A stretch of 64,000 nt of DNA from Sphyrna mokarran (Eukaryota). The notes below the pieces were generated by a model. The model was not told the origin of the DNA and ran no database searches. It saw only the letters and a program-made list of their open reading frames with translations. The translations under genes and the position numbers were made by a program. This document shows positions 1,607 through 46,300 of the stretch, piece by piece (position 1 is the first letter of the stretch; each line of letters starts with the position of its first letter). The stretch spans positions 12,834,001 to 12,898,000 of the forward strand of contig JAGIQG010000016.1 of NCBI GenBank assembly GCA_024679065.1, given 5' to 3'.

Positions 1607-1627
1607 AACAAAAGAAGTCGGCAAACG
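1607..1627 (+). pseudogene. Degenerate 21-nt heptad microexon (EQKKSAN), donor GT>AT
   Basis: ttttttttatgtccttaatgatccAG|AACAAAAGAAGTCGGCAAACG|ATgagg; same length and phase as, and similar to, the 6724 and 26105 exons. Confidence 0.45.
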
Positions 1628-3294
1628 ATGAGGGCGAAATTGTAGTTATTGTGACAAGTATAAGAAACACACAAACAAATGACTTTTTCTCTTCTAGTGT
1701 GGTATTTAATTAGAGATAGAGATCGGTTTCATTTAATAATAGCTGAGGCCCATGTGACAAGTGATCTGTTTTGATGTTAGTAACATGAACTATATTGCTG
1801 TGCAATTGCAAAGGCGTTCAAGGTGATAGCATATGTTTTCCACAAATGCCTTCTGCCATTTTCTCGGCTGGTTTATTTCAGATGAACATTATTAATAGGT
1901 TGAAAAGGGATATTTTGAACTGCTACTATAAGAACAAAATTAGCATTGAGCAGTGTGCAGCACAGAGAACACTCATTCTCTGTGCAGCCCTCAATATAGT
2001 TAAAAAAAAATCAGCTTCCCAGATATTATTCGAACATATGTCAATCATCTGGTCCCGGCTACATTCACCCAACAGAATCATTTGCAAAATGAATCCCACG
2101 TTATGATGATAGAGGCCGAAGTTTTAATAGTGATAACAGAATAGTTTCACAAATGTCGTCGTTTAATAAGTCAAAACATCATTTGCTTGGCAATTGTCAA
2201 TAAATTGTATTGCAACCATGGAAATACAAACATTCTTACACATCCAATAGGTCTGTCACATGATCTCGGACAAGGATCACTGCATTATTCTTCCATGAAA
2301 CTGAATTCAACTAGTTGCAGTTTAATTAGTATGCTGATAGAAGCAGAAATCACTGACATTCAGCTACCTTCTGCAATCATGATCTTCGTACCTCCAGAAT
2401 CACCGATTCATCACGTAATATTCCAAAATGGAAACATTGTTCCGCAGTAAAAGAATGTTCTAAAGTCTGGCAACGTCCCTTTAAAATAAGCATTCCAGTT
2501 GACTTCTGACTCAGTAATTTGGCACATGAATATCACCAAGTCAGAATGTCGTGTGCGTGCGTGTGTATGAGTGTGTATGTGTTTGTGTGCATGCGTGCGT
2601 GTGCAGGAGGTAGTGACAAACTTTAATTGATCACATATTAATAAATGGATTTTTTTAAAAAAATTACGCGCTGATATTCTTGACATTTCTGATGACTTAT
2701 TCTCTTAATCTAAGCATCTTATGTGCTGCTACTGAGCGCCTTCTGCCACTACGTTTCAATTTATGTAATGATATCATACTTTGTACTGGCACAAAATGCG
2801 AAGAACAGACTTAGCATAATGTTGTTTTAAACAGCTTTTAAACATGTATACATTAATTCCAAAAGTCATGTCAAAGTATCAAAATGGCGAGACATGGAAT
2901 TACTTGGAATTTCCCCCCAAAATTGCAAGCATTTTCAGGGATGATCTACTCGAAAAAATGAGAAGAGATTAAAAAGGAGGGAAAAAAATGAGATCAGACA
3001 CTAAAGACAAGCCAACATCAATTCAGAAAGACCAAGCGACCAACCCTGATCTACTTTGTAAATGCGATATTCATTAATTCTGAAAGTGCAAGCTATGTTC
3101 TTTAATGATATCATTGTTGTTTAGAGTTTCGGTAATCGTATTATTTATTCGTCTTTTTATACGTTATTTATTTGCGTTATTTATGCGTCTTTTATTTTTT
3201 GATGTCTTTCAAAATGCAGGACCGAAACAATCGTTATTAGATGAAAGATGCAGCAATATAGACATTTCAATTTATAAATTGTTTACCAATGCAG

Positions 3295-3315
3295 AACTGA
3301 ATAAGTAATCAGAAA
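3295..3315 (+). pseudogene. 21-nt heptad microexon with in-frame stop (ELNK*SE)
   Basis: gtttaccaatgcAG|AACTGAATAAGTAATCAGAAA|GTgaga; aligns to the 31765 exon (AACTGAAGATGTA-TCAG) with one extra A creating TAA. Confidence 0.5.
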
Positions 3316-3589
3316 GTGAGAAAGGAGTGGCACTATCACGATGTAATTCAGCAACGCACGCTCCAGCCACTTGTTTCAGCTTTTAAAAATGGCGCCCTCA
3401 ATGAATACCTTTGAACAGCAGAGAAAAAAACAAAATCAATTGGAGACTCTGATTGACATAATGCTGTCAAATTTCCTAAACCAAACAAATTGCACCCAAG
3501 GCGGTTTTTGGTCTGGAAATGGGTAATTTTAGGTTCTGATACATGATTTTTTAAATTCTTCCCCGTCCACCAAAAAAAAAGTGCTGGAT

Positions 3590-4870
3590 GAATGGATGAG
3601 GACAAATACAGTTCACATTGCTAATGACCGTGCAAGAGATGAACTATCGAACTAGAAGGGATCATGAGTCATTCGTACGGCAACAATTGGGCACAGTTCC
3701 GAAAAAAAAACAGATTCATGACCACTTGGAAAGTTTTTGTTTTTCAAGCAATGGTCAACAAAACATTGCTATATAGACCTCATGGCTAATAAATTGACTA
3801 AATGTTTCATGTAATATGGAAAAGTCTGCGGGTGAAGGAAGTTCATCATAGTGATTTTAGAATGTGTTGACAATGAGCCTCTTGGGAGATTAGTTGAACA
3901 GTTTCACGTTCTTGCATGTATTGCAATTCTGACGAGATATCAGAAACTGGCCGAGTAATAGAATTAAAGCGCATTCGTGTAAGTCTGGTCAAGTGACTGA
4001 GACCTAATGTGCAATGACGTGCAACAACGATTAGTAATGAAACTCTTATTGTGAGTTACATACATGGACGACAAAATGTGATTGAGTAATGATAATTAAG
4101 TTTGCAGACAACATTAACATTGGCATGACGGTTAATGTGAAGAAGATCGTTATAGGTTGTAGGATAGCATCATAGCGACAGGCCCTTCTGCACAAATAGT
4201 GCACGCTGCTTTTTTTTTATTATTAATCTGGTCCTAAATTGCTGATGTTTAGCCCATATCACCTGGTAACATCCTTAGCCATGTAACATTGTTATTCATG
4301 TAACCGTCTAGATGTCTTTTTTTGTTATTATTAAACATAAAAATGCACCCGACTCCACCACTAACTATGGAATTTCGTCCGAGGAACTCACAACACTCTC
4401 TGTGAAGAAATTCCCTCTGGATCCTTTTGCGTCTCTCTTCAAACCTATATCCTCTAGAATTAGACTGCTCTCGCTTTGGAATACATGTTGACTATCTACT
4501 TTTACGATGAGGGCAATCAGTGATGATGGAGTTCTCCAGAGTGTAGGTTCGGTGACAACTGCGGTAGAATGTGCAACTTTGTTAATCTCATAATCGGAGG
4601 GATGTGATAGCACACGAGTAAGTACAGAGTATGTTTGCAGGAATATTCCATGAGAGAAGGATTCGATCTACAAGAAGAGAATATGCAACGTAATAAGTGA
4701 GTGGGGAGCAGCTATTCCTATGAGCTGAGAGTCCAATCACGAGGGACCACAGCATTTGGGTAAGGTACAGGAGATTCAAAGGAGATTTGAGATAAAATGG
4801 TCTCACTCAGACTGCTGTGCGAACTTGGAATGATATGTCTGGGAAGTTCGTCGAACACTCAAAACTTTTT
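3590..4870. mobile_element. Cluster of highly decayed CR1 LINE fragments (mixed orientation)
   Basis: RT-region remnants on + (aagtttgcagacaac = KFAD); an inverted 3' end from ~4185 (caggcccttc...). Confidence 0.65.
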
Positions 4871-5279
4871 ATCTTTTAATACTCTAGGAATAATGATTTG
4901 GAACTTCATAATAACCAGGACCTTTGGACAGTGCAGAACATTTACGTGCTTTGCATGTTAGATATAATAGATACATATTCAATTTTTCGAAGTGTTTTTG
5001 CGACGCAGAGTAGTTAAATGACCCAAGAGTCCTTCATAGCAGACACATCAACGAAGGGAACATGACAAACCGAACGGCCGATATGATTTTTTTTTACTCG
5101 TCTCTACACAAGACACTGCGGAAAATGTATACTGCAAAAGGGAACAAAAATGTAGCAACTTTGGATAACTCAAGTAAAAAAAAAGTGTTGAGAAGATGTT
5201 ACCCGGTAACATTAGATGGATTTGCTCTTGTTATTGCTTTCCTCGGGGTTTATTAGTATTGTTTTATTACCTCCCACAA

Positions 5280-5300
5280 AATTGAAAAAGTGGCAACAAG
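5280..5300 (+). pseudogene. 21-nt heptad microexon (ELKKWQQ) with acceptor AG>AA
   Basis: gttttattacctcccacAA|AATTGAAAAAGTGGCAACAAG|GTaagc: strong donor and pyrimidine tract, but no AG. Confidence 0.6.
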
Positions 5301-5559
5301 GTAAGCAATAAAGACAAATGTTGTGCACCTAATGTGAAGTGAAGGGGTGTCTGCGAAGAAAATGTTTGGGGATACAATTATAGATCGAGAGTCAGAAAGG
5401 TAGACAGACTGAAATAATAGGATAGATAAATAGTAGGAATCACAAAGATACATGGGTTGAACATTTAAAAAAAATCCACGTCGATAGTAAACTAAGAGCA
5501 GAATTGAACGAGCATGCCTGGTGCTGTGAAATAATACTGCTAAGGACTGTGATACTGTG

Positions 5560-5852
5560 TCTCCAATAGAGAGATAGATAGACAGATAAACAGATGGCTG
5601 GGTTACGGACGGATGGAGAGAAGGATGGATGGATGGATGGATAAATGGGGGGCAGATGGACTGATGGAGGAAGAGATGGGCGGATGGTGGCAGAAATGGC
5701 TGAATAGAGGTATGAAAGTTTGGAGATTTAGCATTGGATCGACGGGAAAAGAAGGACATGAAACGACGGATTAGCAAGAAAGATGAAAAAGTGAAAGAAA
5801 GAGAAAGAGTGAAAAAGTGAGAGAGAGAAAAAAAGAGAAAGCGAAGGGGACA

Positions 5853-5920
<68 letters not shown>
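5560..5920. repeat. Purine-rich (GGAT/AGAT/GA) low-complexity tract ending in (CA)n at 5856-5920
   Basis: Directly visible; produces the spurious CVCV ORFs. Confidence 0.95.
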
Positions 5921-5922
<2 letters not shown>

Positions 5923-6723
5923 TTTGGAATGGAGAGAGAGTTTCAAAAGTCAATAAAATTCGTGATTTCTACATAGTTTTATGAAACTGTTGTCTTACAA
6001 CCAGTGGCAAGCAATACCACAAATTGAGCAATCAACTCAACTTTAATTGGACAGTCTGAACTTCACTGCCGAAATCAAGCATCATCTAAACGGCACGGTT
6101 CAAGTACTCCTGGCACAACGCTATAAAGCATGCCCAGGAAAACACATCTTAATGATTCCAAGGTGAATATCACTGAACTCGATCTCCAACACAAAGTGGA
6201 CGCAACTTAAAATTTTTGCATTCAAGGTTGTCCCGAACATAACAGAGACTCTTCAGCTAGTGGCATCATGATTCACTCGTGCTATACGCAAGGCTGAGCA
6301 AAGGCTCAGCCAAATGGTTGAAAGAAACGCAAATATGACATTACATTCTTCCACAGAGGATATGATAGTCGTAGTGGAAGTCAGAGGCGACTTTCGTCAA
6401 TTGCGTGGATGGCTGATCACTGACAGAGAGCAACACCACATGAGTTATACTTCTTGAATCAGTTGTTTTTACTTTTAGAAGCCAGCCTTACTAATCATGA
6501 ACTTTGGCTGAGATGTAGTGATCCCCAGAATTCGGATTTCTGCCTCAAATCAAAGAGAAACCTTTAATGCCTGGGAGTATTGCTACCCAGCTTTAATAAA
6601 CATAATCTACGCATTATTTACTGATATTTACATTGGTTGTAGTACAATGTCAATTGATTATTCGAGAATGATTGCAAGTAGAAATATATTGCTGCTTTTA
6701 GTTTTTTTTAATGATCAATGTAG

Positions 6724-6744
6724 AACTAAATATGTCGGGAGATG
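6724..6744 (+). CDS. 21-nt phase-1 heptad microexon (ELNMSGD), GC donor
   Basis: ttttttttaatgatcaatgtAG|AACTAAATATGTCGGGAGATG|GCgagt; similar to the 16568 and 26105 exons. Confidence 0.55.
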
Positions 6745-6889
6745 GCGAGTGCGGAACAACATTGTTTACCTGCAACATTTCATTTCAGCCTTCTTGAAAA
6801 TATTTCATTTTCAAGCATTGTCCACATTGACAAATAGAATGTGTTTGCACAAAATTACTTTTCTGATACTAGTCAATCATACTAGTTAC

Positions 6890-7110
6890 TAGCTCCATGA
6901 CCCTATAAATTTATCGAGCTAACTCCGTGATTCAAAGAGATGATTTGACATAGGAAATCAAACTAAGTAGAAACTGGAATGTCGAGAACAAGATTACACA
7001 AACACACGGAGAGCGTGCAAATTACATGCATGCAATCACCAAAGGCTGCAATTAAGATCGAGTCTCTGATGCTGTATAGAAGTGCAGCTGGACACCATCT
7101 CACTTTGCCG
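6890..7110 (-). mobile_element. Decayed tRNA-derived SINE (V-SINE/HE1-like)
   Basis: Resembles the better-preserved copy at 29230-29541. Confidence 0.55.
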
Positions 7111-7309
7111 CTAATGTACTGTGATGTGCTGAATGGCACACACGTTGATTAATTACATTTTTTTTGGAGATTGGCAAAGGAAAACGAATTACATGTCAAT
7201 TTACCAACATTGTGACATCAAGGGCAAACAAATTTTACCGATGATTAAAATGGGGAGATTGAAGTAGTGTTTTCCAACTTTGCTTTTTAAAATAAAATCG
7301 AGGGAGTGG

Positions 7310-7715
7310 CACATTTTCCTAGTCCATAAGAAAGTACAAAGAGTCGTGAATGAAGCCAACACATCGCTCAAGCCAACTACACATCCATTAAACTTTATAT
7401 AATGTTCTTGCCTCCACAAGGCAGCCAGCATAAACGTCATGCACCACGGAAATGTTGTCTCCTCCTACTCGATAAAAAAAGCAAATATCTAGTCTATTAT
7501 CAACCGTCTCAATAAAACCCTCTTCCCTGCTGCCGTCAGAATTTGACTAGACATACTCATAACAAGTTGAGTTTCCTCTGAACCCGAACTTAGCTATCTA
7601 AGATTGTATTTTGCATCCTCATCGTTCTTTCTACGTGGATTTTATGGTTAATTAAATCACGGGCATGAAACATATTTTCACTATTTAATAATATGAGAAT
7701 AATAAATCTCATCAA
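7310..7715 (+). mobile_element. Decayed 3' end of a non-LTR element (Rex1/Babar-like)
   Basis: Remnants such as aaggcagccagcataa...cttccctgctgccgtcag, ending in aataataaatc; clade assignment is from recalled similarity. Confidence 0.4.
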
Positions 7716-7732
7716 ATAATCTCTTTGCTTTT

Positions 7733-8400
7733 GAGGTCACTGAAAGTAGGCAGTCAAGTGGATAAAGTTGTTAAGAAGGCATATGGAGTCTTAGCTTTTA
7801 TTGGTAGGGGGATTGAATTTCGGAGCCGCAGCATCATGTTGCAAATGTACAAAACTCTAGTGCGGCCGCACTTGGAGTATTGTGTGCAGTTCTGGTCGCC
7901 ACATTATAAGAAAGATGTGGAGGCATTGGAGAGGGTACAGAGGAGGTTTACCAGGATGTTGCCGGGTATGGAGGGCAGGTCTTATGAAGAGAGGCTGAGG
8001 GATTTGAGGTTGTTTTCGTTAGAAAGGAGGCGGCTAAGAGGGGACCTTATCGAAACATATAAGATGATTAGTGGTTTAGATAGGGTGGACAGTGATAGCC
8101 TTTTTCCTAGGATGGAGAAAGCTAGCACGAGGGGACACAGCTTAAAATTAAGGGGTATGAGTTATAGGACGGATATCAGAGGTAGGTTCTTTACTCAAAG
8201 AGTGATTAGGGAGTGGAATGCCCTGCCTGCAGCTGTTTTAGATGCGCCAAGTTTGGTGGCGTTTAAGAGGTTAATTGATAAGTATATGGAAGAGAAGGGA
8301 ATGGTTTAGTTTGGAGGGGAATTGCTTTTTATTTTGGTCGGCACAACATCGAAGGCCGAAGGGCCTGTTCTGTGCTGTATTGTTCTATGTTCTATGTTCT
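7733..8400 (+). mobile_element. Young 5'-truncated CR1 LINE (ORF2 C-terminus intact to stop at 8309)
   Basis: YKTLVRPHLEYCVQFWSPH...TRGHS...FFTQRV; 3' UTR hairpin AGGCC-GAAG-GGCCT; (TTCTATG)n tail. Confidence 0.97.
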
Positions 8401-8679
8401 ATATAACCATAATAAATTATATCAGCTGCATCTGATCCTCTTGGTAAATAGCACTGCGCTAGTTTCCTCAATAAAAAAAGTAAAACAGTTCAAAAATCGG
8501 GCATCATACTTGAAATGTGTTTGCAATTATATCAGCCAAAATAATGTATTCCAATAACTAAATACCGTCGGTAACCTGAATGAATAATGGTTGAAATACA
8601 CCAAATCAACAATCTCGAGGGAAGGAGTCATGAAGGTTCATTATTTCAGCAACTGATGTCTCAAGTGAGGATTGTACTA

Positions 8680-8900
8680 ATACTGCAATCAATTTATTGT
8701 GAAATGCTACAAACCGCCACGTTCTGGCGCCTGTGTGGGTTATCAAGTCTAGCCACCACATCTTTCAAACTGTGGGAGTAATCCCGAGCTTCTGGCGCAA
8801 AACCATGCGGTCACAAGGACGGCGTGCAAACTCCATTGAAACAGTATTCGCAACCCTGGTCGCTGATATTGTGAGGCAACAGTGGTAACCATTATGCACC
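8680..8900 (-). mobile_element. Decayed SINE
   Basis: gccacgttctggcgcctg...cacatctttc...actgtggga...gtgcaaactcc motifs shared with the other SINE copies. Confidence 0.55.
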
Positions 8901-9822: not shown

Positions 9823-9843
9823 CAATGACAGCGTGCCAGAAAG
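9823..9843 (+). CDS. 21-nt phase-1 heptad microexon (AMTACQK)
   Basis: atttctataaaaccttacAG|CAATGACAGCGTGCCAGAAAG|GTaaga; phase 0 gives a stop. Confidence 0.6.
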
Positions 9844-10949: not shown

Positions 10950-13900
10950 GCGTCAGAAATCCAAGGTAACACCATACGAAATTGTCCTGAAGTATTTGTT
11001 GATTTGGGAATGCAGTCGGCATTGACCATAGTGCTATTACTTGTAAGATAGCTATAGAGAGTGATATGTTTGACTCAAAAGTTAAAATTCTAAATTGGGT
11101 TAAGGCAAATTTTGATGCTGCCAAGCGGAATATTCAACAGTTACTTGGAGAGTATGTGAGAAGGCAAACGGAAGACTGGTAAGGGGCAGGCTTTCAAAAG
11201 AGCGTTAACCAGGAAACAGGGTAAACACATCCCTTTTATAGTGAAGGGCAAGACTAGCAGAAGTAGCTATCGCTGGATGACTGGGGATATTGAGGCTCTA
11301 GTCAAGAAGCAGAAAGAGGTGCATGCCATGTATTGGCAACTGGAATCAAGCGAATCCCTTGATGAATATAAGAGGTATAAGTATACAGTTAAGAGAAAAA
11401 TCAGCAGAGCAGAAATGAGGCATCAGATTGTTTTGGCACATAACAAAGGAGAATCCAGAGATTTTACAAATACATAAAGCGCGAAAGAGTAAAGGGAGAG
11501 AGAGGGCAGGACCGTTCAGGATCAGTAAGGTCATGTGTGGATCCACAGGAGATGGGTGAGATCCCAACTGGATATATCTCATCTATATTTATTATGTTAG
11601 GAGAGTTGTGGAAACAATTAGTGGCATATCACAGAGAAGGATTTCCTAAGAATCTTACAGCACATCACGGTAGATAAATTCCCGGGAAGTGATGACATGT
11701 ATCCCAGGACCTTGTGGGAGGGAGGGAAGGACATTGCAGGTCCCCTAACAGAGATATTTGAATCATCCATAGTGATGGATGAGGTGTCTGAAGATTGGAG
11801 AGAGGCAAATGTTGCATGTTTGCTTAAGAATGGCTGCAGCGAAAAGCTTGGAAACTACCGGGCAGTAAAACTCACATCTGTTGTGGATAAGCTGTTGAAA
11901 GGTATTTTGAGAGACGTTTTTTACAGGCATTTAGAGACGCAGGAACTGATTAGGGCAGTCAACATCACTTTGTGAGTGGAAAATCATGTCGCACAAATTT
12001 AGTTGAGTTTTTGAAGGGGTAATCACAAATGTAAATGGGGGCAGTGTAGTTGATAGTTTCGACTTTGAAAAGGTATTCATTGTACATAGAACATAGAACA
12101 TTACAGCACAGAACAGGCCCTTCGGCCTTCGATGTTGCGCCGACCAATATAAAAAGCAATGCCCCTCCAAACTAAACCATTCCCTTCTCTTCCATATACT
12201 TATCAACTAACCTCTTAACGCCACCAAACTTGGCGCATCTACAACTGCTGCAGGCAGGGCATTCCACTCCCGAACCACCTTTGGGTAAAGAACCTACCTC
12301 TGATATCCGTCCTATAACTATCACCCCTTAATTTAAAGCTGTGTCCCCTCGTGCTAGCTTTTTCCATCCTAGGAAAAAGGCTATCACTATCCACCCTATC
12401 TATACCTCTAATCATCTTATAGGTTTCGATTAGGTCTCCTCTTAGCCGCCTCCTTTCTAACGAAAACAACCTCAAATCCCTCAGCCTCTCTTCATAAGAC
12501 CTGCCCTCCATACCATGCAACATCCTGGTAAACCTCCTCTGTACCCTCTCCAATGCCTCCACATCTTTCTTATAATGTTGGGACCAGAACTGCACACAAT
12601 ACTCCAAGTGCGGCCGCACTAGAGTTTTGTACAGTTGCAACATGACGTTGCGGCTCCGAAATTCAATCCCGCTACCAATAAAAGCTAAGACTCCATATGC
12701 CTTCTTAACAACCTTCTCGACTTGACTGCCTACTTTCAGGGATCTACGCACATACACACCAAGATCCCTCTGTTCATCTAGACTACTAAGAATCCTACCA
12801 TTTGCCCTATACTCTACACATTTATTATTTCTGCCATAGTGCATTACCTCACACTTTTCCACATTAAACTTCATTTGCTACCTCTCGGCCCAGCTCTGCA
12901 ACTTGTCCAAGTCCCTCTGCAAACTAGAACACCCCTCTTCACTGTCTACCACTCCACCGACTTTAGTGTCATCTGCAAATTTACTAATCCATCCTTCAAT
13001 ACCCTCATCCAGCTCATTTATAAAAATTACCAACAGCAGGGGCCCCAAAACAGACCCCTGAGGTACACCACTTGTCACCGAACTCCACGATGAATATCTC
13101 CCATCAACCACCACCCTCTTTCTTCTATCTGCTAGCCAATTCCTAACCTAATTAGCTAAATCACCCTCTATCCCATACATCTGCATTTTCTGCAGAAGTC
13201 TTCCATGGGCCACCTTATCAAACGCCTTACTAAAGTCCATATATACCACATCAACCACCTTACCCCCATCCCCCTCCTTAGTCACTTTTTCAAAAAACTC
13301 AATGAGGTTAGTAAGGCACGACCTACCCTTCACAAAACCATGCTGACTATCTCCAATCAATTCATTACTCTCTAAATAACTATAAATCCTATCCCTAATT
13401 ATTCTCTCCAATGCTTTGCCCACCACAGAATTAAGACTCACTGGCCTATAATTCCCTGGAAGGTCTCTCTTCCCCTTCTTGAACAACGGGACCACATTCG
13501 CTATCCTCCAGTCCTCCGGAACCACACCCGTAACCAACGAATCTCCAATCTCTTCAGGCTCCACGCACAACTTTCCATTGCTGTCTATGACTGGCCCTAA
13601 TCTTGTCCTAACCAATCTTCTATTCTTAACATATCTAAAGAAAGCTTTAGGATTCTCCTTAATCCTATCAGCCAAAGTCTTCTCGTGCCCTCTCTTAGCT
13701 CCCCTCAGTTCACTCTTTAGCTCCCTCCTGGCTAATCTATAGCTATCCATTGCACTAACCGAGCCTTCAAGCCTCATCCTGACATAAGCCTCCTTTTTCC
13801 TTTTAATCAGCGAATCAACTTTTTTCGTACACCAAGGTTCTCTTACTCGAGCATTTCCTCCTTGCCTGACAGGGACATACTTAGCAAGGACTCGCAGCAG

Positions 13901-15510
13901 CTGCTCCTTGAATAAGCTCCACATTCCAGATGTTCCCAGTCCCTGTAGTTTCCTAGTCCAATCTATGCACCCTAATTCTCTCCTGATGGCCTCATAATTA
14001 CCCTTCCCCCAGCTATAACTACTGCCCCCAGCTTCACGCCTATCCCTATCCATCACTAAGGTGAACATAACCGAATTGTGGTCACTATCACCAAAATGTT
14101 CACTAACTTCCATGCCTAACACCTGGTCTGGCTCATTGCCCAGCACCAAATCCAATGTAGCCACACCTCTAGTTGGCCTATCCACATACTGAGTCAAAAA
14201 ACCTTCCTGCACGCTTTGTACGAAAACTGACCCCTCTAACGTGCTAGAGCTATAGCTATTCCAATCAATATTAATAAAGTTAAAGTCCCCCATAACAATT
14301 ACACTATTACATTCACTCCTGACCAGAATTGACTTTGCAATCCTTTCCTCAACCTCTCTAGAACTTTTAGGAGGTCTATAAAAGACTCTCACGGGATCCA
14401 GGAAAATGTGTGTATTTGAATTCAAAATTGGGCTTCTTGAGAGAAGGTAAACAGTGGGTGTCGAGTGTTTATTTTTTTCAATCTGGAATCCTGTGGCCAG
14501 CAGTGTGTCTCTCAGATCAATGCTGGCTCCACTGTTATTTGTTATTTATCTTAATGATTTGGATGAAAATATAGGAAACATGGTTAGTAAGTTTGCAGAC
14601 AACACAAAGATTATTGGCGTAGAGGAGAGTAAATAAAGTTATCTCCGATTGCAACTGGATCTTGATAAATTCGGCTAGTGGGCTAGCGAATGGCAGAAGG
14701 AGTTTCATTTAGACAAATACGAGGTGATGCATTTCGAACGAGGCCAGAACTTTCTCAGTTAGTAGTTGGGCGTTGGGAAGAGTTGCAGAACAAAGAGATC
14801 TATGGGTACATATTCATAGCTCCTTGAATGTGCAGTCACAGGTGGACCGAATAGTGAAGAAGGCATTTAGCATGCTTGTTTCCATCGGTCAGAGCGTTTA
14901 ATGCAGGGGTTGGAGGGTTTTGTGAAGTCTTACAAGAATTGCTAAGGCCAAACATAGAATACTGTGTGCAGGGTTGGTCACCATATTATGGATAGGATAT
15001 TATTAAAATAGAAATAACACAGAAAAAACGGATTATTGGTGATGCTACCGGGATATGATGGTTCGAGTTATAAAGAGAGGCTGCATATGCCGGACCTTTT
15101 ATCTCTGGTGCATTGTGGAGTCATATTTTAGAGGTCAATAAAATAATAGGGCACATATCAGCTAAATAGCCAATAAATTTTACCAAAGATGAGAGAGCCT
15201 AAAACTAGAAGGCATAGTTTTAGGGTAAGAGGAACGAGATACAAAAATGTCCACAGGGGCAACTTTGTCACACAGATGGTGGTGCGTGTCTGGAACAAAC
15301 TGCCAGAGGTAATCGCAGAGACGAGTGCAATTTTGCCTTTAAAAACACTTAGATCGTTAGATGTATAAGATGGTATAGAGAATATAGGCCAAATGCTGGC
15401 AAGTGGGATCAGTTCACGGGTTTAAAGAGGGTGGCATGGAAAAGTTGGATCGAAGCATATTTTTTTTCTTGTTTTGTTTTCCAATCGGTAATCTCCTATG
15501 ATTCTCTGGT
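10950..15510 (+). mobile_element. Older CR1 LINE (ORF2 remnants) interrupted by a younger antisense CR1
   Basis: YPRTLWE...EDWREANV...NYRAVKLTSVV before 12083; LAPLLFVIYLNDLD...SKFADNTK after 14390; 3' end near 15500. Confidence 0.9.
12084..14390 (-). mobile_element. Young CR1 LINE, truncated within the APE endonuclease; ORF2 pseudogenised
   Basis: APE motifs GDFN, LDLV, SDHN; RT motifs [14 protein letters not shown]; the three ORF pieces share one frame, split by two TAG codons; tail acatagaacatagaac. Confidence 0.98.
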
Positions 15511-16567: not shown

Positions 16568-16588
16568 AATTAAAGACAATTGGAGGAG
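16568..16588 (+). CDS. 21-nt phase-1 heptad microexon (ELKTIGG)
   Basis: tgtttgccttttcatgacgcAG|AATTAAAGACAATTGGAGGAG|GTaatt; first 9 nt identical to the 26105 exon. Confidence 0.7.
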
Positions 16589-17479: not shown

Positions 17480-17690
17480 TCATGGAGATCCACTTAAACA
17501 GCATATTTTGTGACAGTAGAAGGCAAATTTCCATTGCTAAGCAGCATTTTTGAATTGTGGATGGCAACATGAATACCCTGAAGAAACCTACATCAGCAAG
17601 GGGAGAATAGGCAAAGTCCACGCAGACAGATGTCAAGCTGAATTGGAACCTGGGTCTTGGCACTTCGAAGCAGCTATCTCAAATTTCGGT
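17480..17690 (-). mobile_element. Decayed tRNA-derived SINE
   Basis: gggagaataggcaaagtccacgcagaca...aattggaacctgggtc motifs. Confidence 0.6.
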
Positions 17691-19479: not shown

Positions 19480-20160
19480 AAATCACTTCCCCTGACTGGA
19501 TTGGACATTCCATCCTTAGCTTACACAAGGACCCCCTAATCATTTTTCTATGTGTTCCAGATGAAGCCTTTCGGGGAATATTTCACTAAGAGTTCAAATA
19601 GTCTCGACTCTTACAATGAGGGACAGATAAGCTTCGTTGCCTCCATTATTTAACTTCTATACCTACTTCTGCTGTTCTATCCAAGTAAGCCTTATGCACA
19701 AAGCTAAGGTCTTTGAAAATATTGGGCGTTAACTCGTCATCCAGCCTGTATCCGGGCTGTGCACTCTCCTTCAACTCCATTATTTCTCTCGGGATGTATT
19801 TCACTGCCTTAACTAACCCATTGCTTTAACCTCTTTTTGCACATTTTATTTTTCCCCCAATGTCCTTCTAAAAAGCACTCTGCCTTTATGTATCCCAGCT
19901 TTTTGCAATGAAAATACTCGATGTATTTAACCTCTTTTCCACATCTCACATTTCTGAACGCTTGTCTATAAGATTTTGGTAACAAATCATAAGCAATCTT
20001 TATCTCTTCGCATTATCGTGACACCATCTCTGACAGTGCTGCAAACACTCCTGTCTACCAGTTTGGTCTGAAATAAAAATGCCCACGCATCTTCTTAACA
20101 GTTCATCTGTGTTGTCAAATTCTCAAAAGGTAATGAATAAAGCGTCTACACTCGTTTCGT
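19480..20160 (-). mobile_element. Highly decayed CR1 3' fragment
   Basis: Antisense remnants of the ORF2 C-terminus and 3' UTR. Confidence 0.45.
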
Positions 20161-21049: not shown

Positions 21050-21076
21050 TGTAGATAGATAAATAGATAGATATAT

Positions 21077-21123
<47 letters not shown>
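21050..21123. repeat. Compound (AGAT)/(AC)/(AT) microsatellite
   Basis: Directly visible. Confidence 0.9.
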
Positions 21124-21124
<1 letters not shown>

Positions 21125-22750: not shown

Positions 22751-24526
22751 CGTCTTTAGAGTTTACGTTCCCAAAAATCGTTCCAGGTTTATTTGCTTCA
22801 CGCTGAACTCGATTATTCTGGATGTGATGCTGTCTGTTGGCCCGTTGTCAAATTATTCCCAGAAACCTTGTCCCGCTGCATCAAGTGTTGTATCTATACC
22901 CGTTTGTTTTCTTGTCTACACCTGGAAGAAAATATCTAGTTCACTTTAAATTTCCACTCTTCTGCCTCTTTCACCTGTTGGCTCCCTTCCTCTGAATATG
23001 CCTGCATTTCACATAATGGAGCAAATGACACAAGTCCTCTTGAGCTCATTTCATCAACGCCCGTTTTCCCGAAAAAAAACTACCCAACTTTCCCACTGTC
23101 TTCGCTTCAGTGATATCTGCCAGAATAATGCAGCATTCCAAACCCACTCCTCTGTAACGTTTTTAGTCTTCATTAACCATGTGCCTGCAATCCACATCAA
23201 TCCCGACAGCATTTAAACACTGTTTCAACTTGAATCAAGAATTAATTAACCAATACATTCAGGGTTCTTCTTTCCCCAGTACCAGTATATGTTCCCCGCT
23301 CTCCTCGTGCTTGAGCACGAAAGCCTCCGCTTTCTCAGGTTCATCAGGAAATCAGCATCAAACACTTACTTTACCAAAATCTACGATCAAGATGGGAAGA
23401 GGAGAGTTTGTGTGGCAAGTGTTGCAATCCATATTCCTCGTAACTTAATCTTCCCATCCCACGGTGGCCCAAGCACAATCACAAAGCTTACCACTTGTCA
23501 CCTTTCCATCAATGCAGTAAACAAACTTTTCTGGTTATGTAGATTTCAATTTCATCTATTAATATTTTGTTTGCCGTCTATTCTCCTCACACATAGTAAC
23601 TCATTCGTTGGGAATATTAAATATTGCATTACTTGTTCAACTGTCAATGTAAATGATGACAGCAAGTTAACAGGGGTGGGTCTTTCGGATATTCCATGAA
23701 TTTATTTCACAATGAATTCATGTAACATTTTGCGTAATATAAAAGCAATGTGGTAGGAAGTGTTTTAGGAGTGCTATTTTCGTGCATACAGTTGAGGAAA
23801 ATACAAGTAAGGTTTGAACAGCAAATCGGAGTCTCCCTGGGAAGACAACAGGCACTTTATCTTATGTACTTCGACACAGAAGGAGAAAGTGATCGTATGC
23901 TTCTAATTTTCCTTTCCTCATCTTGGTGATTTTATCAATAATAATTTACAATTTGAGAATAAACTAAAGTTTGTTCAATCCAAAGTAATGTTAATTTGTT
24001 GGAAGTGACACTACGAACGTAAGTTGTAACAACCACTTACAAGAGTTGGAACTTTGCATAATTTTTTTTTGAAGATTGATTAGAGGGTCGGCGAGTTCGA
24101 AAGGAATACCAATCTCGGTCCTGGGACACAGAATTTAATGCTCTTGCCTTTTTCTTAATCCAAGCAAAACGTCAAATTTTATATGCATACTTTCCAGGAT
24201 CAAGGCTAAATTTTGCTGGCAGTTCCGTGGCCCAGTAAAACTAACCTCTATAATTCCACGACTGACCAAATATTTTGTTTTAACACAGATTGTGATATAT
24301 AAAACACGTTAGCTGATAACTTCACAAATGCAGAACCTTTTGCTTTGCTGATTCTATGGTTCAAAAAAAAATGAATTTTGTTTAAAGACTCACAAATGAA
24401 GTTTTCTATTCAACGAATGACAAGGACGTCAAATAAAATGAATAGCAGTGATTGGATTACTAACATTCAAGCAATGAGCTAATGTTGAAGAAAACATTCT
24501 TAGAGTGTGGTCTTAAAGTTTTCACA

Positions 24527-25680
24527 GTCATAGAGGTTTACAGTGTGGAAAAGGCCCTTCGGCCAACTTGTCCATGCCAATTGTTTTTTAAACCCAGAAG
24601 CTAATCCCAATTACCCGCATTTGGCCCATTTATTGCTATACCCATGTTGTCCATGCAACTATCTAAATTATTTTTTTTAAGACACAAGTGTACCCGCCTT
24701 TACTACTACCTCTAGCAACTTGTTCTACGCACTCATCATCCTAAGTGTGAAAGAATTGGACTCTTTGTATCTCTCCCCGCTCACCTTAAAACACTTGTTT
24801 TAGACTCACCTATCTTTGGGAAAATGTATTGATAATCTAACTTAACTATGGCCTTCATTACTCTATAGATCTCTATAAGAACACTCCTCAGCCTCCTACG
24901 CTCCACAGAAAGAGAAATAAAAGTCCATCCAGTCTCTTCTGAAACCTCAAACCATTGAGTCCCTGTAGCATCCTAATAAATGCATTCTGCTCTCTTTCTA
25001 GATTAATAATATCCTACCTATAAGAGGGTGACCAGAACTGCAGACATTATTCCATTTGTGGCCTTACCAACGCCCTGTACAACTTCAACAGGACGCCCCA
25101 AATCCTGTACTCAGTGTTCTGAACGATGAAACTAAGCAGGTCGAATGCTTACTTCACCTCCCTGTCTAACTGTGACTCCACTTTCAAGGAGATTTGAAGA
25201 CGCACCCCTAGATTCCTTTCTTATGTAACTTTCGCCAATGCCCCACCATTAACTGATTGGGCCCTGCTCTGGTTCAATCCACCAAAATGCGTCACCTCAC
25301 ATTTGTCTAAATTAAACTCCATCTGCCATTCATCAACCCACTAGCCCAATTGATCAAGATTCTATTAGCAATCGAGATAATTTTCCTTGCTGCCCACGGT
25401 CCCTCAATCTCGGTTCATCTGCAAACTCATTAACGATGCTTCCTATGATCTTATCCAAATCATTAATATAAATTACAAATGGCCGAACAATTATTTTCTG
25501 TTCTGGCTGAGTTACGTTGCTTTCTGCTGCGGTACGTTCATCTTCCATTAAAGCAATTCATTTTTTCTACGGAAAAAAAATCTGACCTGCAATTTATTCC
25601 TGTAGAGGATTGGGCCATATTGCAATCACGCAACCCCACTTTTATTCTCTTATTTGCAACTTCACACTAATTTGTCCCAC
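24527..25680 (-). mobile_element. Older CR1 3' fragment
   Basis: gtcatagag...aaggcccttcggcc tail; FVIYINDLD...FADE in the 25354 ORF; same type as the 10950-15510 element. Confidence 0.9.
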
Positions 25681-26104
25681 AATGTCGAAAAGTACCTTCA
25701 TTGATTACACGATCCGTGTCATATCATGCCAGCATAACTTAGAAGATCATTTTTGCTTTGCTTTGTTAATGAACTCATAACTACTGATATGGCCAAATTA
25801 GTATCACTATTGCAACATTGATGACAACTGTTAATTGCGTACACAAACATACAGCTTGTATCTAGGAATGTAGCTACGTTATCAGTAATATTGAGACTAC
25901 CACGTCATATTTTATCTGATTATGGACCAGGGCGTTATGTCTCTGTTCCAAAGCTTTTCAATATTTTTTTTCAAATTTGATAAACTGCAGTGTGAAAAAT
26001 ATTGCTGGATATTCACTCGTGTGATTAAGCGCCTGGTGATACTAATGCATATTGAAGCAACGATACAACAAACAACGTGTTATTTGCCCTTTTTACCCAT
26101 ACAG

Positions 26105-26125
26105 AATTAAAGAGGTCAGGAGAAA
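26105..26125 (+). CDS. 21-nt phase-1 heptad microexon (ELKRSGE)
   Basis: tatttgccctttttacccatacAG|AATTAAAGAGGTCAGGAGAAA|GTaagt. Confidence 0.75.
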
Positions 26126-26354
26126 GTAAGTGTTTGATTGACTTTTCCATTTATATATACGATGCGTCCTCGAGCAAATACCAGTTCCTCTGTCAGATGT
26201 TGAACAACTTGAATTCGCACAGGAATCTGCAAAATCATTTTTTGTTTCCTGAGCCAACGGTGATATGTTCGCAATTGCTGCTGATTAGTTGAAGGAATTT
26301 TCTGCACAAAAATGTTAACGTTCAGTATGATTAATAAACTGGAAAACAATTTTC

Positions 26355-26570
26355 CCCGTGCCTGCGTGGGTTTGCTCTAGGTATCCCGGCTCCTTCTCAC
26401 ATGGCATAGATGTGCGTATTTGTTGGTTGGCCAGATTAAATAGTTTCTTGGTGTCAGGGGACTTGTTAGAGTAAATGCATGGGGTTATGTGAAAATGGTC
26501 TGGGTGGGTGTGTGGACAGTGCAGACTCCAGGGCCGAATGATATCCTTCTGCAATGTAGGATTTCATGAA
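26355..26570 (+). mobile_element. Partial SINE with CR1-like 3' tail
   Basis: tccccgtgcctgcgtgggttt...gggccgaatg...tgtaggatt. Confidence 0.65.
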
Positions 26571-26629
26571 TTACACAAGTCAGAGTGAGGAAGAATTTAT
26601 TTTGTTAACACTAATATTAATAGAGAGAT

Positions 26630-27670
26630 GTACTTGTTCATTCGTGGATCATGGGTGTCTATGGCTGGCTAGCATTTATTACCCATAGGTAGTTGCCCTT
26701 GAGAAGGAAGATTTGGACTGTCTTCATGAATCGCGGCTGTCCACGTGCTGTGTGTTGACCGAAAGGGTCTTTATAGAGAGAAGTCCAGGATTTTGACACA
26801 ACGACTGCAAAGAATTGGCGATGTGTTTCAAAGTCAGGAAGCTCATTCTCTTGGAGTGTAACCACCATGTTATAATGTTTGCGGATATCTGTGGCACTTG
26901 TCCTTCTGGAAGTAACTGGTAATCCGTTTGTAGTTTTCTATTCAAGGATCTTAGGTGTATTGAAGAATTGCCTGTTGTATATAGTACCCACTGCTTTTAC
27001 AAGGTATCAGAGATGGTGGGAGTGGATGCTTGTGGATGAGGTGCCAAGCAGGCGAGTTGCTTTACCTGGATGGTGTAAATCTTCTTGAATGCTGTTGCAG
27101 TTGCACCTATTCAAGAAAGCGGTGACAATTCTGTTAGGCTCCCGACCTCTACCTTGCAGATGGATAGGCTTTGAAGAGGCAGAACGTGAGTTATTCTTCG
27201 CAGTATTCTAATCCTCTGGCCTGGTCTTCTAGCCAGTCTATTTGTGTGGCTAGTCCAGCTGAGTCCAGAGTCAAAAGTGACTCCAAGGATGTTGGTAGTG
27301 GTGGATTCAATGATGTTAACACCATTGAATGTCAAGAGGTGGTGGTTAGTGCCGCTTATTGGTGATGATCTGCGCCTAGCACTTATCTGGCAGAAATGTT
27401 ACTTGCCAGCACAAGCCTGGTTATCTCCAGGTCTTATTGCATTTGAACATAGATAACATCAGTCTCTGAGGAGGCTGTACTGAGCTTTGTTAGGTCAGCG
27501 GCACAGGTTTCAGGAAATGGGTACTGTGGTCGATGCAGAATCGATGTGCCGAATGACAGCCGCTTGCAAATATGAAAGCATGTTTATTTTCTGAGCGCTT
27601 TACTAATCTAGACCAAAAGAAAAATCACTGAGTTCTGACCTTATGATCGAGGGAAGGTCATTGTTTGATT
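26630..27670 (-). mobile_element. Decayed LINE of the L2/CR1 group (post-RT region and 3' end)
   Basis: ILGVTFDSGLSWTSH...GQRIRILRRITH in the 27111 ORF is the typical segment downstream of RT. Confidence 0.8.
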
Positions 27671-28134
27671 TGATTTGATATGATTTATCGTTGTCATTTC
27701 TTTTTGGTACAACGTGAAAAGTGTTATTTCCCCCGTGCTGCACAGATAACATAACTTTCACGTGGAAGGAAAACAGAGACTTTAGAATGAAGATTTTTTT
27801 TTTTTGCTTTTTTTATTCATAGCGAGGGAGAAAAGAAAGGTTAACTAAATAAGATATAGGAAAGGTTCGTTGTTGGAGTGAATTAAAAAAAAAAACACTG
27901 AAATTAGAATTCTAGAAGCATGGGACAAGGGGAAAGATTAAATTGGAGGATATGATGGGCACATCTCTCAAGAAGACGCCACATTCCTGCGTCATCTTGT
28001 GAAGAGTCATCACATTAAATGTTTCTTCAAAGAATTTCTTACACTGAAAATGATGTTTGTCAACATTAGCAAAGCTCCCAGAAAATAAATGCACTTCGAT
28101 ATTTGCAATGAGTTGAGGGTGTAGTGTCAATTAT

Positions 28135-28440
28135 ATCATAGAGGGCCTACAGTGCAGAGGGGTGCCATTCGGCACATCGAGTCTGCATCAATCACAATCC
28201 CACAAAGGATTTATCCTCGCAACCGAACATATTTGGCCTGCTAATCCTCGAAACTTCGCTGAATTTAGCATTACCAATCAACCTAAAACGCACACATTTG
28301 GACTGTGGGAGCAAACGTAGAAAACACACGCAGACATGGGAAAAAAAGTTGTAAACGTCACATAGAGATAGCTCTGAGGCCGGAATTGAACTCTTACCTC
28401 TGGGCACAGTGAGGCTGTCATGCTAAACAGTGCGCATCAA
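28135..28440 (-). mobile_element. tRNA-derived SINE (V-SINE/HE1-like), decayed
   Basis: Collinear with 29230-29541. Confidence 0.75.
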
Positions 28441-29229
28441 TGTAGTTTTTTTTAGACTTGAGAACGGTAACTCCCTGCAGAGCTGAATTCAGGACACTAA
28501 TATAGATTGATGACAAAAAAATGGAGAATATTTTTGTTCAATACTTATTATTATGCAATCAGTTGAAAGTGCCCTTAAGCTAAAAGCTGATAATCGAATC
28601 ATTGCACCTGATAAATGACGCATTCATATTCATTTATTAGATCAGTCCAACTCGTATTCAGATAAATTGATTCTTCTTTTTTTTTATTCATTCTTAGAAC
28701 TTAGGCGTTACAAGTTGGGCAACATTTATTTATCATCCCTAGTTACTCTTGACAAGTAGTGATGAGCCACATTCTTGAACTGTTGAATATCATGTGCTGT
28801 CATTTTATCAACACAGCCGTAAGAGAGGAAATATCTAGAATTTTGATTTCAAAGAAACTGGGATTCATTTTGAAGTCAAGTTGCTGAGTTTATTGCTCGG
28901 GAGCTAGTGCGAACATTGTTGAAGCAGTAGCAGATATTGGGCTTCGGACACAACCTTCAGGGATCTCTGCACAGCTCTCCTGGGGCTTAATCAATTGACC
29001 CTCCACAACCACAACCATCTCCATATAAACAAAACAAGTCCTGACTCCAACCAGCGGATTGTTTGCCCACTGATTATTAGTTCCAGCTTTGCTAGGGTTG
29101 CTTGATATTCGATTGCAGTTACTAAATAAAATATGTCATCTTAAGAGCAATGAAGAACTTGGAATTATTCGAACCAATTTGTTTCAGATTTTTTGGCGTT
29201 AGAGGTAACACTGCACGAAGTGGAAGGGA

Positions 29230-29541
29230 ATCATAGAATCATATGAACTAACAGTGCTGAAAGTCGCTATTCAATCCATCGAGTGTACACCGATTACAAT
29301 CCCACCCAAATATCCGTGTAACCCACGCGTCGCAGGACATTAAGGGGCAATTTTAGCATGGTCAATCAATCTAACCAACACATCTTTAGACTGTGGGAGG
29401 AAAACGGAGCACCAGGAGGAAACACACGCAGGTACGTAGGGAATGTGGAAACTCACACAGACTTTGGCCCAAGTGGAGAATCGAAGCCACGTCCCTGGAG
29501 CTGTGAAGCAGCAGTGCTAACCACCGTGCTATCGTGACGCC
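29230..29541 (-). mobile_element. Near full-length tRNA-derived SINE (V-SINE/HE1-like)
   Basis: Reverse strand reads ...cacggtggttagcactgctgcttcacagctccagggac...ttcgattc (A/B boxes), a central domain and a ...gattctatgatt tail. Confidence 0.85.
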
Positions 29542-29811
29542 TAAACGATGGCGATTCTCAATGGCCTGTCAAGTAATGCAACAATGCGACTATTCTGTAA
29601 TGAACTTTACACACGATTATTATGAATCCCATGCGTTTATTTGCGTGATGAAATAGATTTTTCCTTTCTTTATACTGCAGTGAATGAAGCCAATGTAATG
29701 CTATTGTGAAGTCAAAGAATTATTCAAGACCTCAACTGTCTCAACTGTCTTAATTGCTCATGTAAATGTTGATACAAAAAGTAACACATTTATATCTGTT
29801 CTAACGTTCAG

Positions 29812-29832
29812 GTGAAAGGAAGTTGGAACAAG
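29812..29832 (+). CDS. 21-nt phase-1 heptad microexon (SERKLEQ if joined to 26105)
   Basis: ttatatctgttctaacgttcAG|GTGAAAGGAAGTTGGAACAAG|GTaaga; phase 2 gives TGA. Confidence 0.7.
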
Positions 29833-30177
29833 GTAAGACGCAAAAGCACCATTGGAACCTAGCACATGCATCAAGGTTAGGAAACTGCCTGTTCATATTC
29901 TAGCACTGGCTGCATAAACAAATAAGTTTGGAGTGTGCGGATTTTTTTTTTCTTGTTTTGTTTTGACAGTCAAATAAGATACCCTTCTCCTTTCCAATAA
30001 TTAATTGTAGAGATCTTTTGCACGACAAATTCAAAGGCGGAAACACATTATTATCGGATCCAGGCATGTTTGAAGAGGTGGATATGATGTTGATTTGTGC
30101 GTCATCAGCTTAAATGTGCAGGACGTGGTTACTGACTGAGAGAGAAAAAAAAAATGCTTGTCCAAAGAGTGGAATGC

Positions 30178-30180
<3 letters not shown>

Positions 30181-30216
<36 letters not shown>
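30181..30216. repeat. (AT)n microsatellite
   Basis: Directly visible. Confidence 0.95.
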
Positions 30217-30218
<2 letters not shown>

Positions 30219-30828
30219 CTTTTTTCACAGATTGTTATACTAAATGTCCCAATTGGTTGTTGACTAATTTTTGTTCAGAATAATCAGAACATGATCGAAC
30301 AGTAACATACTGCTGCGGCCGAAATCGAAAACATGCATACGAATCACACAAACACTTTAGGAAACCTATACTGGACATGTTATTTTATTTGAAGATGTTA
30401 GAAAGAATGAGAGAGTGATAGTTGATTATTTCCAAAAAAAAACAAATCACCTAATGTTATTTGATGGTTTGAAAATAACTTAAGAATCAATCGCAATATT
30501 TCTGTTTGGTTAAACAAAAAGCTGAGTTTGCTGATGTTACAGTAGTGAGGAAGAATCGTCTGTTTTATTCTTCTCTGTTTCTTTTTGGCCATTTTCTGGC
30601 AATTGCCAGGATTTGAGATGATTAACTTGTTAACAATTCGATAAACATTAGGAAAATTTAGTGGTCTCCAATTGGTGGGAGTTGAGGAAGTGGATCAACA
30701 GTCTTTCAGAACTCTTGGTAAACCACTCAAAAATCTTTATGCACTTATAACGCCCAGTATAAGCTGGCTGACGTCGAAAGCAGTACCCACTTGCCAGCTG
30801 AGTAGTAAATATGTACTCTTTGCGTTAG

Positions 30829-30849
30829 AACTTAATCGAGATTATGATA
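30829..30849 (+). pseudogene. Possible degenerate heptad exon (ELNRDYD), donor AT; or start of a read-through terminal exon to 30980
   Basis: atgtactctttgcgttAG|AACTTAATCGAGATTATGATA|ATgaaa; the frame stays open to 30980. Confidence 0.3.
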
Positions 30850-31764
30850 ATGAAAGGACATTAGACGAGCAGCGGTCTTTCTCCAGCGCAGAAATCACGA
30901 GTCATTGGGAACGTTTTAATGGATCTGCTCCACAGCCGCTTGATTCACAAATGCAAATCCTGTATCAAAAATGCTTTTGAGCACATCAGAAAGATGAAGA
31001 ATGCAGTTTCCCTAAAACAAATAACGCAAAAGTTCATTGAAAATAGATTAGCCTTTGTTTTTTTTTTCTTCCCAATCAGAATGGAAGATTCTGCAAGAGA
31101 TCGTGTTTGAATATTTCAATCGAAAATCGCAGATAAGAAGGCAACGTGCACCAGCAGATTCATGACTTCGATATAGTGAGCTAAAAATAAACTGCTGCAA
31201 CTATGAAACAAAAAATGAGGTGTCCTCATTTTGCTTTGGTAACAATACTGAAAACAAATTCAACTTTGATTAGAACTGGCATCATTGCACGCGACTGGCA
31301 ATCGGAGCAGATAGTGTATGAGGTGCACATGCGTCAATATCGGATTGAAAGCACGTTGATGAAGCAACTTCCTTACTTTACCATGTTAGTAATGATATTC
31401 AGTGCGCATTCTTGCGTTGATTTTTTTTTATACAACGTGCGGAAAATATTAACAAATCTTCCATTCTGATTGGGAAGAAAAAAAAAACAAAGGCTTATCT
31501 ATTTTCAATGAAATTTGACGGCGGATATATTGTTTCATACCAAATTTTTTGCACTTATCACTGACTGCATTTTTATCTCTGTGTGAAAAGGTGTCGTTCT
31601 TCAGGACATTGCGGTGATATCAGTGCCGTAGATGACTTCCAGAATTGATTGTAAATGTATTTTGCTGATTTGAATGGTACTGGTATTTTACCCAATTCGA
31701 TTTGTTATGAAGTTCGTCAACAAGTGTCCTGAGGTACTCATGACATTACTATTGTTTCCCATAG

Positions 31765-31785
31765 AACTGAAGATGTATCAGGCTG
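31765..31785 (+). CDS. 21-nt phase-1 heptad microexon (ELKMYQA)
   Basis: ttactattgtttcccatAG|AACTGAAGATGTATCAGGCTG|GTaagt: consensus sites on both sides. Confidence 0.75.
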
Positions 31786-46264: not shown

Positions 46265-46300
46265 ACCTGGAATATTGCAGACAGAGACTAGAAGACCTTG
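46265..46300 (+). CDS. Candidate 36-nt phase-1 exon (DLEYCRQRLEDL), coiled-coil-like
   Basis: tttattttcttgttttacAG|ACCTGG...GACCTTG|GTgcga; strong acceptor, weak donor. Confidence 0.3.

Follow-up and report, generated by a model that had tools for sequence, protein, structure and literature searches.

What are the 21-nt segments, framed like small exons, that recur along a 64,000-nt stretch of the Sphyrna mokarran genome, and to what gene do they belong? The stretch, referred to here as the window, is G000:C668:12834001-12898000 (contig JAGIQG010000016.1 of assembly GCA_024679065.1); all coordinates follow its numbering, with negative values and values above 64000 lying outside it. A preliminary description of this DNA took six such segments, spread over 30 kb, for the coiled-coil tail of a butyrophilin (BTN) or BG-like receptor, with immunoglobulin (Ig) and transmembrane (TM) exons expected upstream of position 1. 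The analysis presented here indicates that they are probably a small part of a 935-kb array of microexons belonging to one gene, which would encode a coiled-coil rod of about 2,000 residues with a B30.2 head, likely without Ig or TM parts. The presence of one gene with this architecture, a microexon array plus B30.2, is very probable in itself. The letters P, M, T, U, V, W and N are used for members of the gene family, P being the gene of the window.

The array shows itself in the lengths of its exons. Within the 1.354-Mb contiguous region examined (-400 kb to +954 kb), candidates defined by splice signals only form spikes at 21, 27 and 36 nt between -100 kb and +890 kb, with 15, 42 and 57 on the + strand vs 7, 2 and 7 on the opposite strand. 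Phase 1 is open in 106 of these 114 candidates, while shuffled exon bodies predict 57; the other frames are open in 37 and 65 (52 and 57 expected), and opposite-strand control candidates (n=15) have no frame preference. A trained model produced 195 non-overlapping calls vs 10 on the opposite strand, amounting to about 2,030 residues (83 calls of 27 nt, 81 of 36 nt and 10 of 21 nt; median gap 3.1 kb), although 195 is no independent count, the model having been trained on 111 exons of gene P itself. Because nucleotide profiles contribute up to 25 more intact units, "about 200" is a fair unit count. About 180 further 36/27-nt exons lie past the window, the whole of which likely sits inside a predicted gene of about 935 kb, reaching from about 54 kb upstream of position 1 to the following terminal exon.

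881942-882462 (G000:C668:13715942-13716462), + strand: terminal B30.2/SPRY exon with phase-1 acceptor, 173 aa and stop

This exon, the sole B30.2 of the contiguous region, forms the 3' end of the array in phase 1, 850 kb beyond the 21-nt block. The last array member before it is a 27-nt exon at 874973, and an AATAAA follows about 230 nt past its stop. It matches Pfam SPRY at E 4e-17, and its best PDB match is BTN3A1 (E 1e-22), with TRIM58, pyrin and TRIM21 close behind. In this respect the preliminary description was right to see the coiled-coil, phase-1 heptad microexons of a butyrophilin-related gene.

The coding pattern of the exons is that of a coiled coil. The 36-nt exons are hydrophobic at residues 2, 5, 9 and 12 in 81, 89, 84 and 72% of cases, respectively, and 33 of 81 carry Cys at position 5, the first d position. 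The 27-nt exons are hydrophobic at residue 4 in 82% and carry Lys at residue 7 in 52 of 83. A 36- and a 27-nt exon in series yield 21 residues with 3-4-3-4-3-4 spacing, that is, three heptads, and the two classes alternate along the array (104 alternations vs 69 +/- 6 in 5,000 shuffles). The 21-nt exon resembles the first seven codons of the 36-nt class, with its core at 2 and 5, and supplies one heptad. When 185 exons are joined in genomic order, the product contains 20% Lys, 19% Glu, 13% Leu and 0.4% Pro, a composition that partly reflects the scoring model, and its hydrophobic periodicity peaks at 3.5 residues. The register is kept across 117 of the 161 scored junctions.

Within the window, the six 21-nt segments described earlier were confirmed at their positions, with AG acceptors, GT donors at 9823, 16568, 26105, 29812 and 31765 and a GC donor at 6724. 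The choice of phase also held, with stops in four of the five GT exons in phase 0, in one of five in phase 2 and in none in phase 1, as did the AAYT[AG]AA start of four of the six segments. The + strand GGTAAG sites number 15 rather than the dozen or so counted by hand, but AG does lie exactly 21 nt upstream of three of them, and the fourth site singled out, 5280, has AA there. The length test that had been suggested was run with a generic splice matrix and with thresholds picked after an earlier look at the data. On the + strand, AG-N(21)-GT gives 5 candidates, whereas the remaining 109 combinations of length and strand average 0.29 and never exceed 2 (Poisson probability 1.4e-5, or 0.0016 when multiplied by 110).

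The six units are thus real, but the block to which they belong has 11. As defined by a profile of the eight intact units, it spans -1613 to 31785 and comprises 8 intact units (6 with GT and 2 with GC donors) plus 3 damaged ones (1607, 3295 and 5280), which score 20.7-28.4, the highest opposite-strand score being 15.6. The intron flanks of the 21-nt units showed no similarity when aligned with one another. The 36-/27-nt exons at 46265, 56073 and 61086 had been overlooked, together with a further 820 kb of array past the window, so that a 30-kb array was too small by about 30-fold, most exons being of 27 and 36 nt. The features in and just upstream of the window are the following.

-53616, -48960 and -43789, + strand: 36-, 27- and 36-nt exons, 5' part of the predicted gene
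-1613 and -486, + strand: intact 21-nt exons just upstream of the window
1607..1627, + strand: damaged 21-nt unit with good acceptor and AT donor; use of a weak GC donor, 6 nt beyond, would extend it to 27 nt
3295..3315, + strand: 21-nt unit with intact AG/GT and in-frame TAA; dead copy or truncating exon
5280..5300, + strand: damaged 21-nt unit, acceptor AA, strong donor
6724..6744, + strand: 21-nt phase-1 microexon with GC donor, a weaker call
9823..9843, + strand: 21-nt phase-1 microexon
16568..16588, + strand: 21-nt phase-1 microexon
19943..19978, + strand: damaged 36-nt copy lacking AG, with in-frame stop; modest score
26105..26125, + strand: 21-nt phase-1 microexon
29812..29832, + strand: 21-nt phase-1 microexon
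31765..31785, + strand: 21-nt phase-1 microexon, final unit of the 21-nt block
46265..46300, + strand: 36-nt phase-1 microexon
56073..56108, + strand: 36-nt phase-1 microexon
60383..60418, + strand: possible damaged 36-nt copy lacking AG, with GTAAG donor; score equal to the control threshold
61086..61112, + strand: 27-nt phase-1 microexon whose NAGNAG acceptor is tandem, so that a start at 61089 would leave 24 nt

With its stop between intact splice sites, the 3295-3315 unit could act as a truncating or decay-inducing exon. The introns contain CR1/LINE-type (long interspersed element) retroelement fragments (7692-8309, 11160-11975 and 12239-14545 in the window), with like copies throughout the locus; we take these three to be endonuclease/reverse transcriptase-like open reading frames (ORFs). 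At 62288-63271, a 600-bp degenerate CCTT simple repeat creates long spurious ORFs.

P belongs to a family. With two relatives as queries, exactly seven genome loci were recovered at E <= 1e-24, each with a family B30.2.

C668, 8.56 Mb, - strand: family B30.2 locus
C668, 11.34 Mb, + strand: family B30.2 locus
C668, 11.88 Mb, + strand: family B30.2 locus
C668, 11.93 Mb, - strand: family B30.2 locus
C668, 13.72 Mb, + strand: family B30.2 locus
C668, 14.32 Mb, + strand: family B30.2 locus
C1548, 101.4 Mb, - strand: seventh family B30.2 locus, N

The genes span at least 0.63 Mb (U), about 1.6 Mb (V), 0.45 Mb (W), 0.73 Mb (M), 0.94 Mb (P) and 0.55 Mb (T), in a cluster of about 5.8 Mb. Among 40 sampled 10-kb pieces from 8.62-14.24 Mb, 31 contain calls, and all 71 calls have the same strand as the next family B30.2. 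In M, phase 1 is open in 25 of 28 (14 expected). V (C668 9.74-11.34 Mb) carries 21-nt exons in its 5' part, across about 0.7 Mb (10/11 calls in six pieces), and is laid out like P, with a 21-nt block followed by 36/27 units; extrapolation from the density of 12 sampled pieces puts its exon count close to 300. P and M stand head to head across a gap of about 130 kb, and T begins about 50 kb past the end of P. The M-P gap holds two pairs of diverged inverted repeats, at -107300 to -105700 and -99500 to -97600. N is compact, with 21 calls, most within about 70 kb, vs 6 on the opposite strand. Its contig, C1548, carries most B30.2 genes of the genome plus BTN-like IgV exons. At about 91-113 Mb of this contig, some 100 B30.2 exons are densely clustered together with 11 BTN-like IgV exons, C-type lectin genes of one exon each and N itself; this is possibly the region linked to the major histocompatibility complex.

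Two B30.2 trees, of 42 and 41 rows, unite the seven loci with the database relatives in a single clade (100/100). This clade is long-branched and stands apart from the sampled BTN and TRIM domains; the trees fix no sister group, BTN are not one clade in them, and cartilaginous-fish BTN were not knowingly included. The named relatives are proteins of sharks, skate, ray and chimaera (Scyliorhinus, Cetorhinus, Narcine, Leucoraja and Callorhinchus). Chimaeras and elasmobranchs split about 420 Myr ago, and since relatives are named in both, the family likely predates that split. For the longer proteins, a single-sequence search returned 2 distant matches only, and it was profile searches that found the family. 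The 1,697-aa Callorhinchus relative is tiled by the 12-/9-residue exon profiles of P (294 vs 115 +/- 15, maximum 146, in 40 shuffles), and in its model a family B30.2 follows about 1,500 residues that are mostly rod.

Predicted isoforms of the relatives differ by blocks of exon size: 9 and 6 aa in Narcine (5 isoforms with 3 different starts), 9 aa in Scyliorhinus, and 9 aa directly before B30.2 as well as 7 aa in Callorhinchus. The Scyliorhinus block is immediately followed by 12 residues that match a 36-nt exon of N, and it ends at an exon edge seen in N, the orthologue. Such database isoform models normally rest on aligned RNA. Short relatives are labelled "TRIM39-like", "TRIM58", "TRIM69-like" or "A33-like" in the databases. 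Residues 60-118 of the Scyliorhinus model P0007 match LINE sequence present many times in the locus; that its N-terminal part is LINE sequence is a sign that annotation fails on the genes of this family.

Two further proteins, P0085 (Atractosteus) and P0117 (Amia), have an N-terminal TM-like stretch, a short coiled coil and a C-terminal B30.2, without Ig or RING; their B30.2 domains group with ray-finned BTN/TRIM and not with the family of P. In the ESM Atlas, SPRY clusters of 55-137 chordate proteins (1,277-1,802 aa, scores 0.79-0.94) bear long-coiled-coil names and may represent the family of P or a parallel bony-fish one.

The exons themselves turn over. In-register intron flanks are common to 22 exon pairs (31 of 195 exons), the best pairs reaching 67-75% over about 300 nt, which implies that exon-plus-intron units duplicate. 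Of 214 profile hits, 27 are damaged; after subtraction of three shifted calls of intact exons and one LINE-like hit, about 23 damaged 36/27 copies are left. It appears, by inference, that selection guards the frame and the core pattern more than the exact sequence.

Several observations weigh against the reading of P as one long rod gene, besides the training of the catalogue on P. The predicted joining of the window exons to the B30.2 exon in one transcript is read from genomic sequence, and the first coding exon of P was not found, nor did comparison of the paralogues reveal a first exon common to them. At -53268 there is a hydrophilic candidate for the start exon, with a strong donor and internal ATGs, but it is unproven. 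A CpG scan singled out no promoter. The largest gap of the array, 42 kb, lies just ahead of the 21-nt block, in which 3 of 11 units are damaged and whose peptides are rich in Gly and Ser and look less like a coiled coil than those of the 36/27 units. The register is broken at 44 of 161 junctions, some of which reflect missed or false calls. Most database relatives are short (129-460 aa). Finally, the ratio of nonsynonymous to synonymous substitution (dN/dS) over 11 duplicated exon pairs is 0.65, a sign of weak constraint and a noisy one, as several of these pairs depend on short, possibly repeat-derived flank matches.

The alternative that best withstands the evidence, though an unlikely one, is the same giant gene with a short hydrophobic start, whose product would be either membrane-anchored (by a butyrophilin TM remnant) or a secreted, disulphide-stapled rod, again without Ig. 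Two relatives, Callorhinchus P0173 (1,697 aa) and Leucoraja P0264 (295 aa), open with a 15-residue hydrophobic stretch of hydropathy 2.3, which likewise counts against the reading preferred here, and the missing first exon of P leaves room for one. The frequent Cys of the 36-nt exons fits as well, as inter-chain disulphides could form at Cys d positions. However, the Leucoraja stretch breaks off right at an exon-like edge and looks like acceptor/intron read-through, and models from Narcine (5), Scyliorhinus (3) and short ones from Callorhinchus (4) have no hydrophobic start. Motif, ORF and splice scans found no convincing signal, TM or ATG-hydrophobic exon upstream of four genes (P, M, T and N), and N-glycosylation sequons occur at chance (8 vs 8.3). 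Seven of the nine relatives scored have no hydrophobic segment before B30.2. It is likely that the product of P has no membrane anchor.

A weaker alternative holds that the locus makes several transcripts, with internal promoters or polyadenylation giving shorter rods and the 21-nt block serving a B30.2-less, BG-tail-like product or being a decaying 5' part. The damage within that block, including a stop between intact splice sites, recalls the truncated BG tails described in PMC5938342. The damaged 36/27 copies, the alternative first exons of relatives and the 42-kb gap point the same way. A CpG scan singled out no promoter. Against this, exons with intact sites hardly ever contain a stop (1 of 195, partly a consequence of how these were chosen, and 8 of 114 in the unbiased set), B30.2 remnants were not found inside the gene span, V has the same layout as P, and the chimaera model carries the rod into its B30.2. 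Several transcripts are for these reasons improbable.

The receptor of the preliminary description fares worse still and must be rated very improbable. Phase-1 heptad exons and B30.2 are butyrophilin/BG features according to PMC4046983 and PMC5938342; the top PDB match is BTN3A1, and N lies on the contig of butyrophilin-like genes. Nevertheless, profiles built from 36 IgV and 30 IgC sequences found neither domain in the contiguous region (best E 0.66 and 3.2), and in 53,361 ORFs of all DNA examined no IgV, IgC or RING/B-box was found (best E 0.66, 0.45 and 0.21). The IgV profile worked as a control, recovering all 10 IgV exons that served as controls outside this region (E 1e-31 to 1e-42), although these were chosen by likeness to a model sequence and a highly divergent Ig could escape. 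The gaps upstream of P, M and T were read fully and those upstream of U, V and W sampled. In particular, the 130-kb gap to M, where the Ig and TM exons had been predicted and a check for IgV/B7-type domains advised, yielded no IgV/IgC and no convincing TM or signal exon. Neither Ig nor RING/B-box occurs in any of 18 database relatives (8 clusters), and the B30.2 stands in its own clade, not with BTN. Moreover, of the 12 IgV exons closest to bichir BTN, 11 are on another contig, about 8-40 kb from B30.2 exons, with none on the contig of P. An Ig ectodomain is with high confidence absent from the product of P.

Chance splice-like motifs or a dead gene, to which some damaged units and an array known from genomic DNA might speak, are scarcely credible beside strand-specific length spikes, a phase-1 frame open in nearly all splice-only candidates, the heptad pattern, an intact B30.2 and relatives across cartilaginous fishes. 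The neck of a C-type lectin was also considered and rejected, as no Lectin_C lies on the contig of P among the 45 matches listed and the array ends in B30.2.

If P is one gene for a coiled-coil rod with a B30.2 head, one transcript would join about 200 phase-1 units. Since all exons are phase 1-1 and a multiple of 3, they can be duplicated, lost or skipped without frameshift. Over evolutionary time, exon birth and death would alter the length of the rod, and in the individual animal cassette splicing would do so. The heptad register should survive the omission of a 21-nt exon or of a 36+27 pair, and omission of one of the pair should introduce a stutter. Least certain is the form of the protein, perhaps a parallel coiled-coil dimer in the cytosol. 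At the coiled-coil rise of 0.148 nm per residue, it would measure about 300 nm with all exons used. Equally conjectural, the rod may act as a spacer or tether that sets a variable distance for a pair of ligand-binding B30.2 domains, and cytoskeleton or trafficking partners might bind along it, by analogy with the soluble BG tail and enterophilin-1. A tether or spacer role, argued by analogy, is a tentative proposal for the product of P. Just as tentatively, the family as a whole may have existed for at least about 420 Myr in cartilaginous fishes as megabase genes with 100-300 interchangeable microexons, in which splicing and turnover set rod length (up to several hundred nm) and register, as in a molecular ruler or variable-length sensor.

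The literature search, subscription papers and supplements aside, gave no description of the family of P. It appears that about 5.8 Mb of one chromosome consist mostly of six genes that annotation pipelines are apt to reduce to a short "TRIM-like" tail. If so, the butyrophilin/BG heptad-exon device would have been enlarged five- to tenfold and uncoupled from the receptor, so that the splicing of microexons over a megabase could be studied in a natural case. The reading would also bear on how B30.2 was shuffled, early in the history of jawed vertebrates, among "orphan" proteins, TRIM and butyrophilins. Were the ruler proposal true, few vertebrate genes would rival these in exon number, and annotation would have missed them. 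The exon coordinates make the reading testable with existing shark and ray RNA-seq.

Among known systems, butyrophilins combine IgV-IgC-TM, a short heptad region and B30.2, as outlined in PMC8813856, and PMC12841164 reports them from cartilaginous fishes. Like P, they have short heptad exons followed by a single B30.2 exon, and a 9-residue segment with an acidic/small-then-aromatic start precedes B30.2 in several family members and in bichir BTN. Unlike P, they have only "a few" heptad repeats according to PMC4046983, vs about 200 exons, and they possess IgV/IgC/TM exons, none of which were found for P, whose B30.2 falls in a separate long-branch clade. BTN-like genes of the same genome also extend only roughly 8-40 kb from IgV to B30.2, vs 935 kb in P. 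TRIM-B30.2 proteins share the order of coiled coil and B30.2 with P but have RING/B-box, absent from the P locus and the 18 relatives; the coiled coil of P is built from symmetric microexons, and its B30.2 does not group with the sampled TRIMs.

The guinea pig enterophilins consist of an extended leucine zipper and a C-terminal B30.2, are not known to have Ig or TM parts, and are far shorter than P. Their architecture would fit that proposed for P, but they are mammalian; homology beyond B30.2 is conjectural, and convergence would explain the likeness at least as well. According to PMC13749957, enterophilin-1 is a binding partner of SNX1 and changes EGFR at the cell surface.

In chicken BG, according to PMC4046983, a variable number of exons (13-36) of 21 (24) nt accompany IgV and TM, with no B30.2. 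PMC5938342 adds that BG tails are truncated by early stops, that a soluble BG tail ("zipper protein") regulates actin-myosin and that BG heptad exons have the same phase as those of P, with the core at codons 4 and 7. BG thus resembles P in a long coiled coil encoded by 21-nt phase-1 exons, as in the 11-unit block of P and the longer block of V. The core of the 27-nt exon of P also lies at codons 4/7, whereas that of its 21-/36-nt exons lies at 2/5; in addition, BG is without B30.2, while P is dominated by the 36+27-nt three-heptad unit and ends in B30.2. By analogy, the soluble BG tail may be the closest functional model for P.

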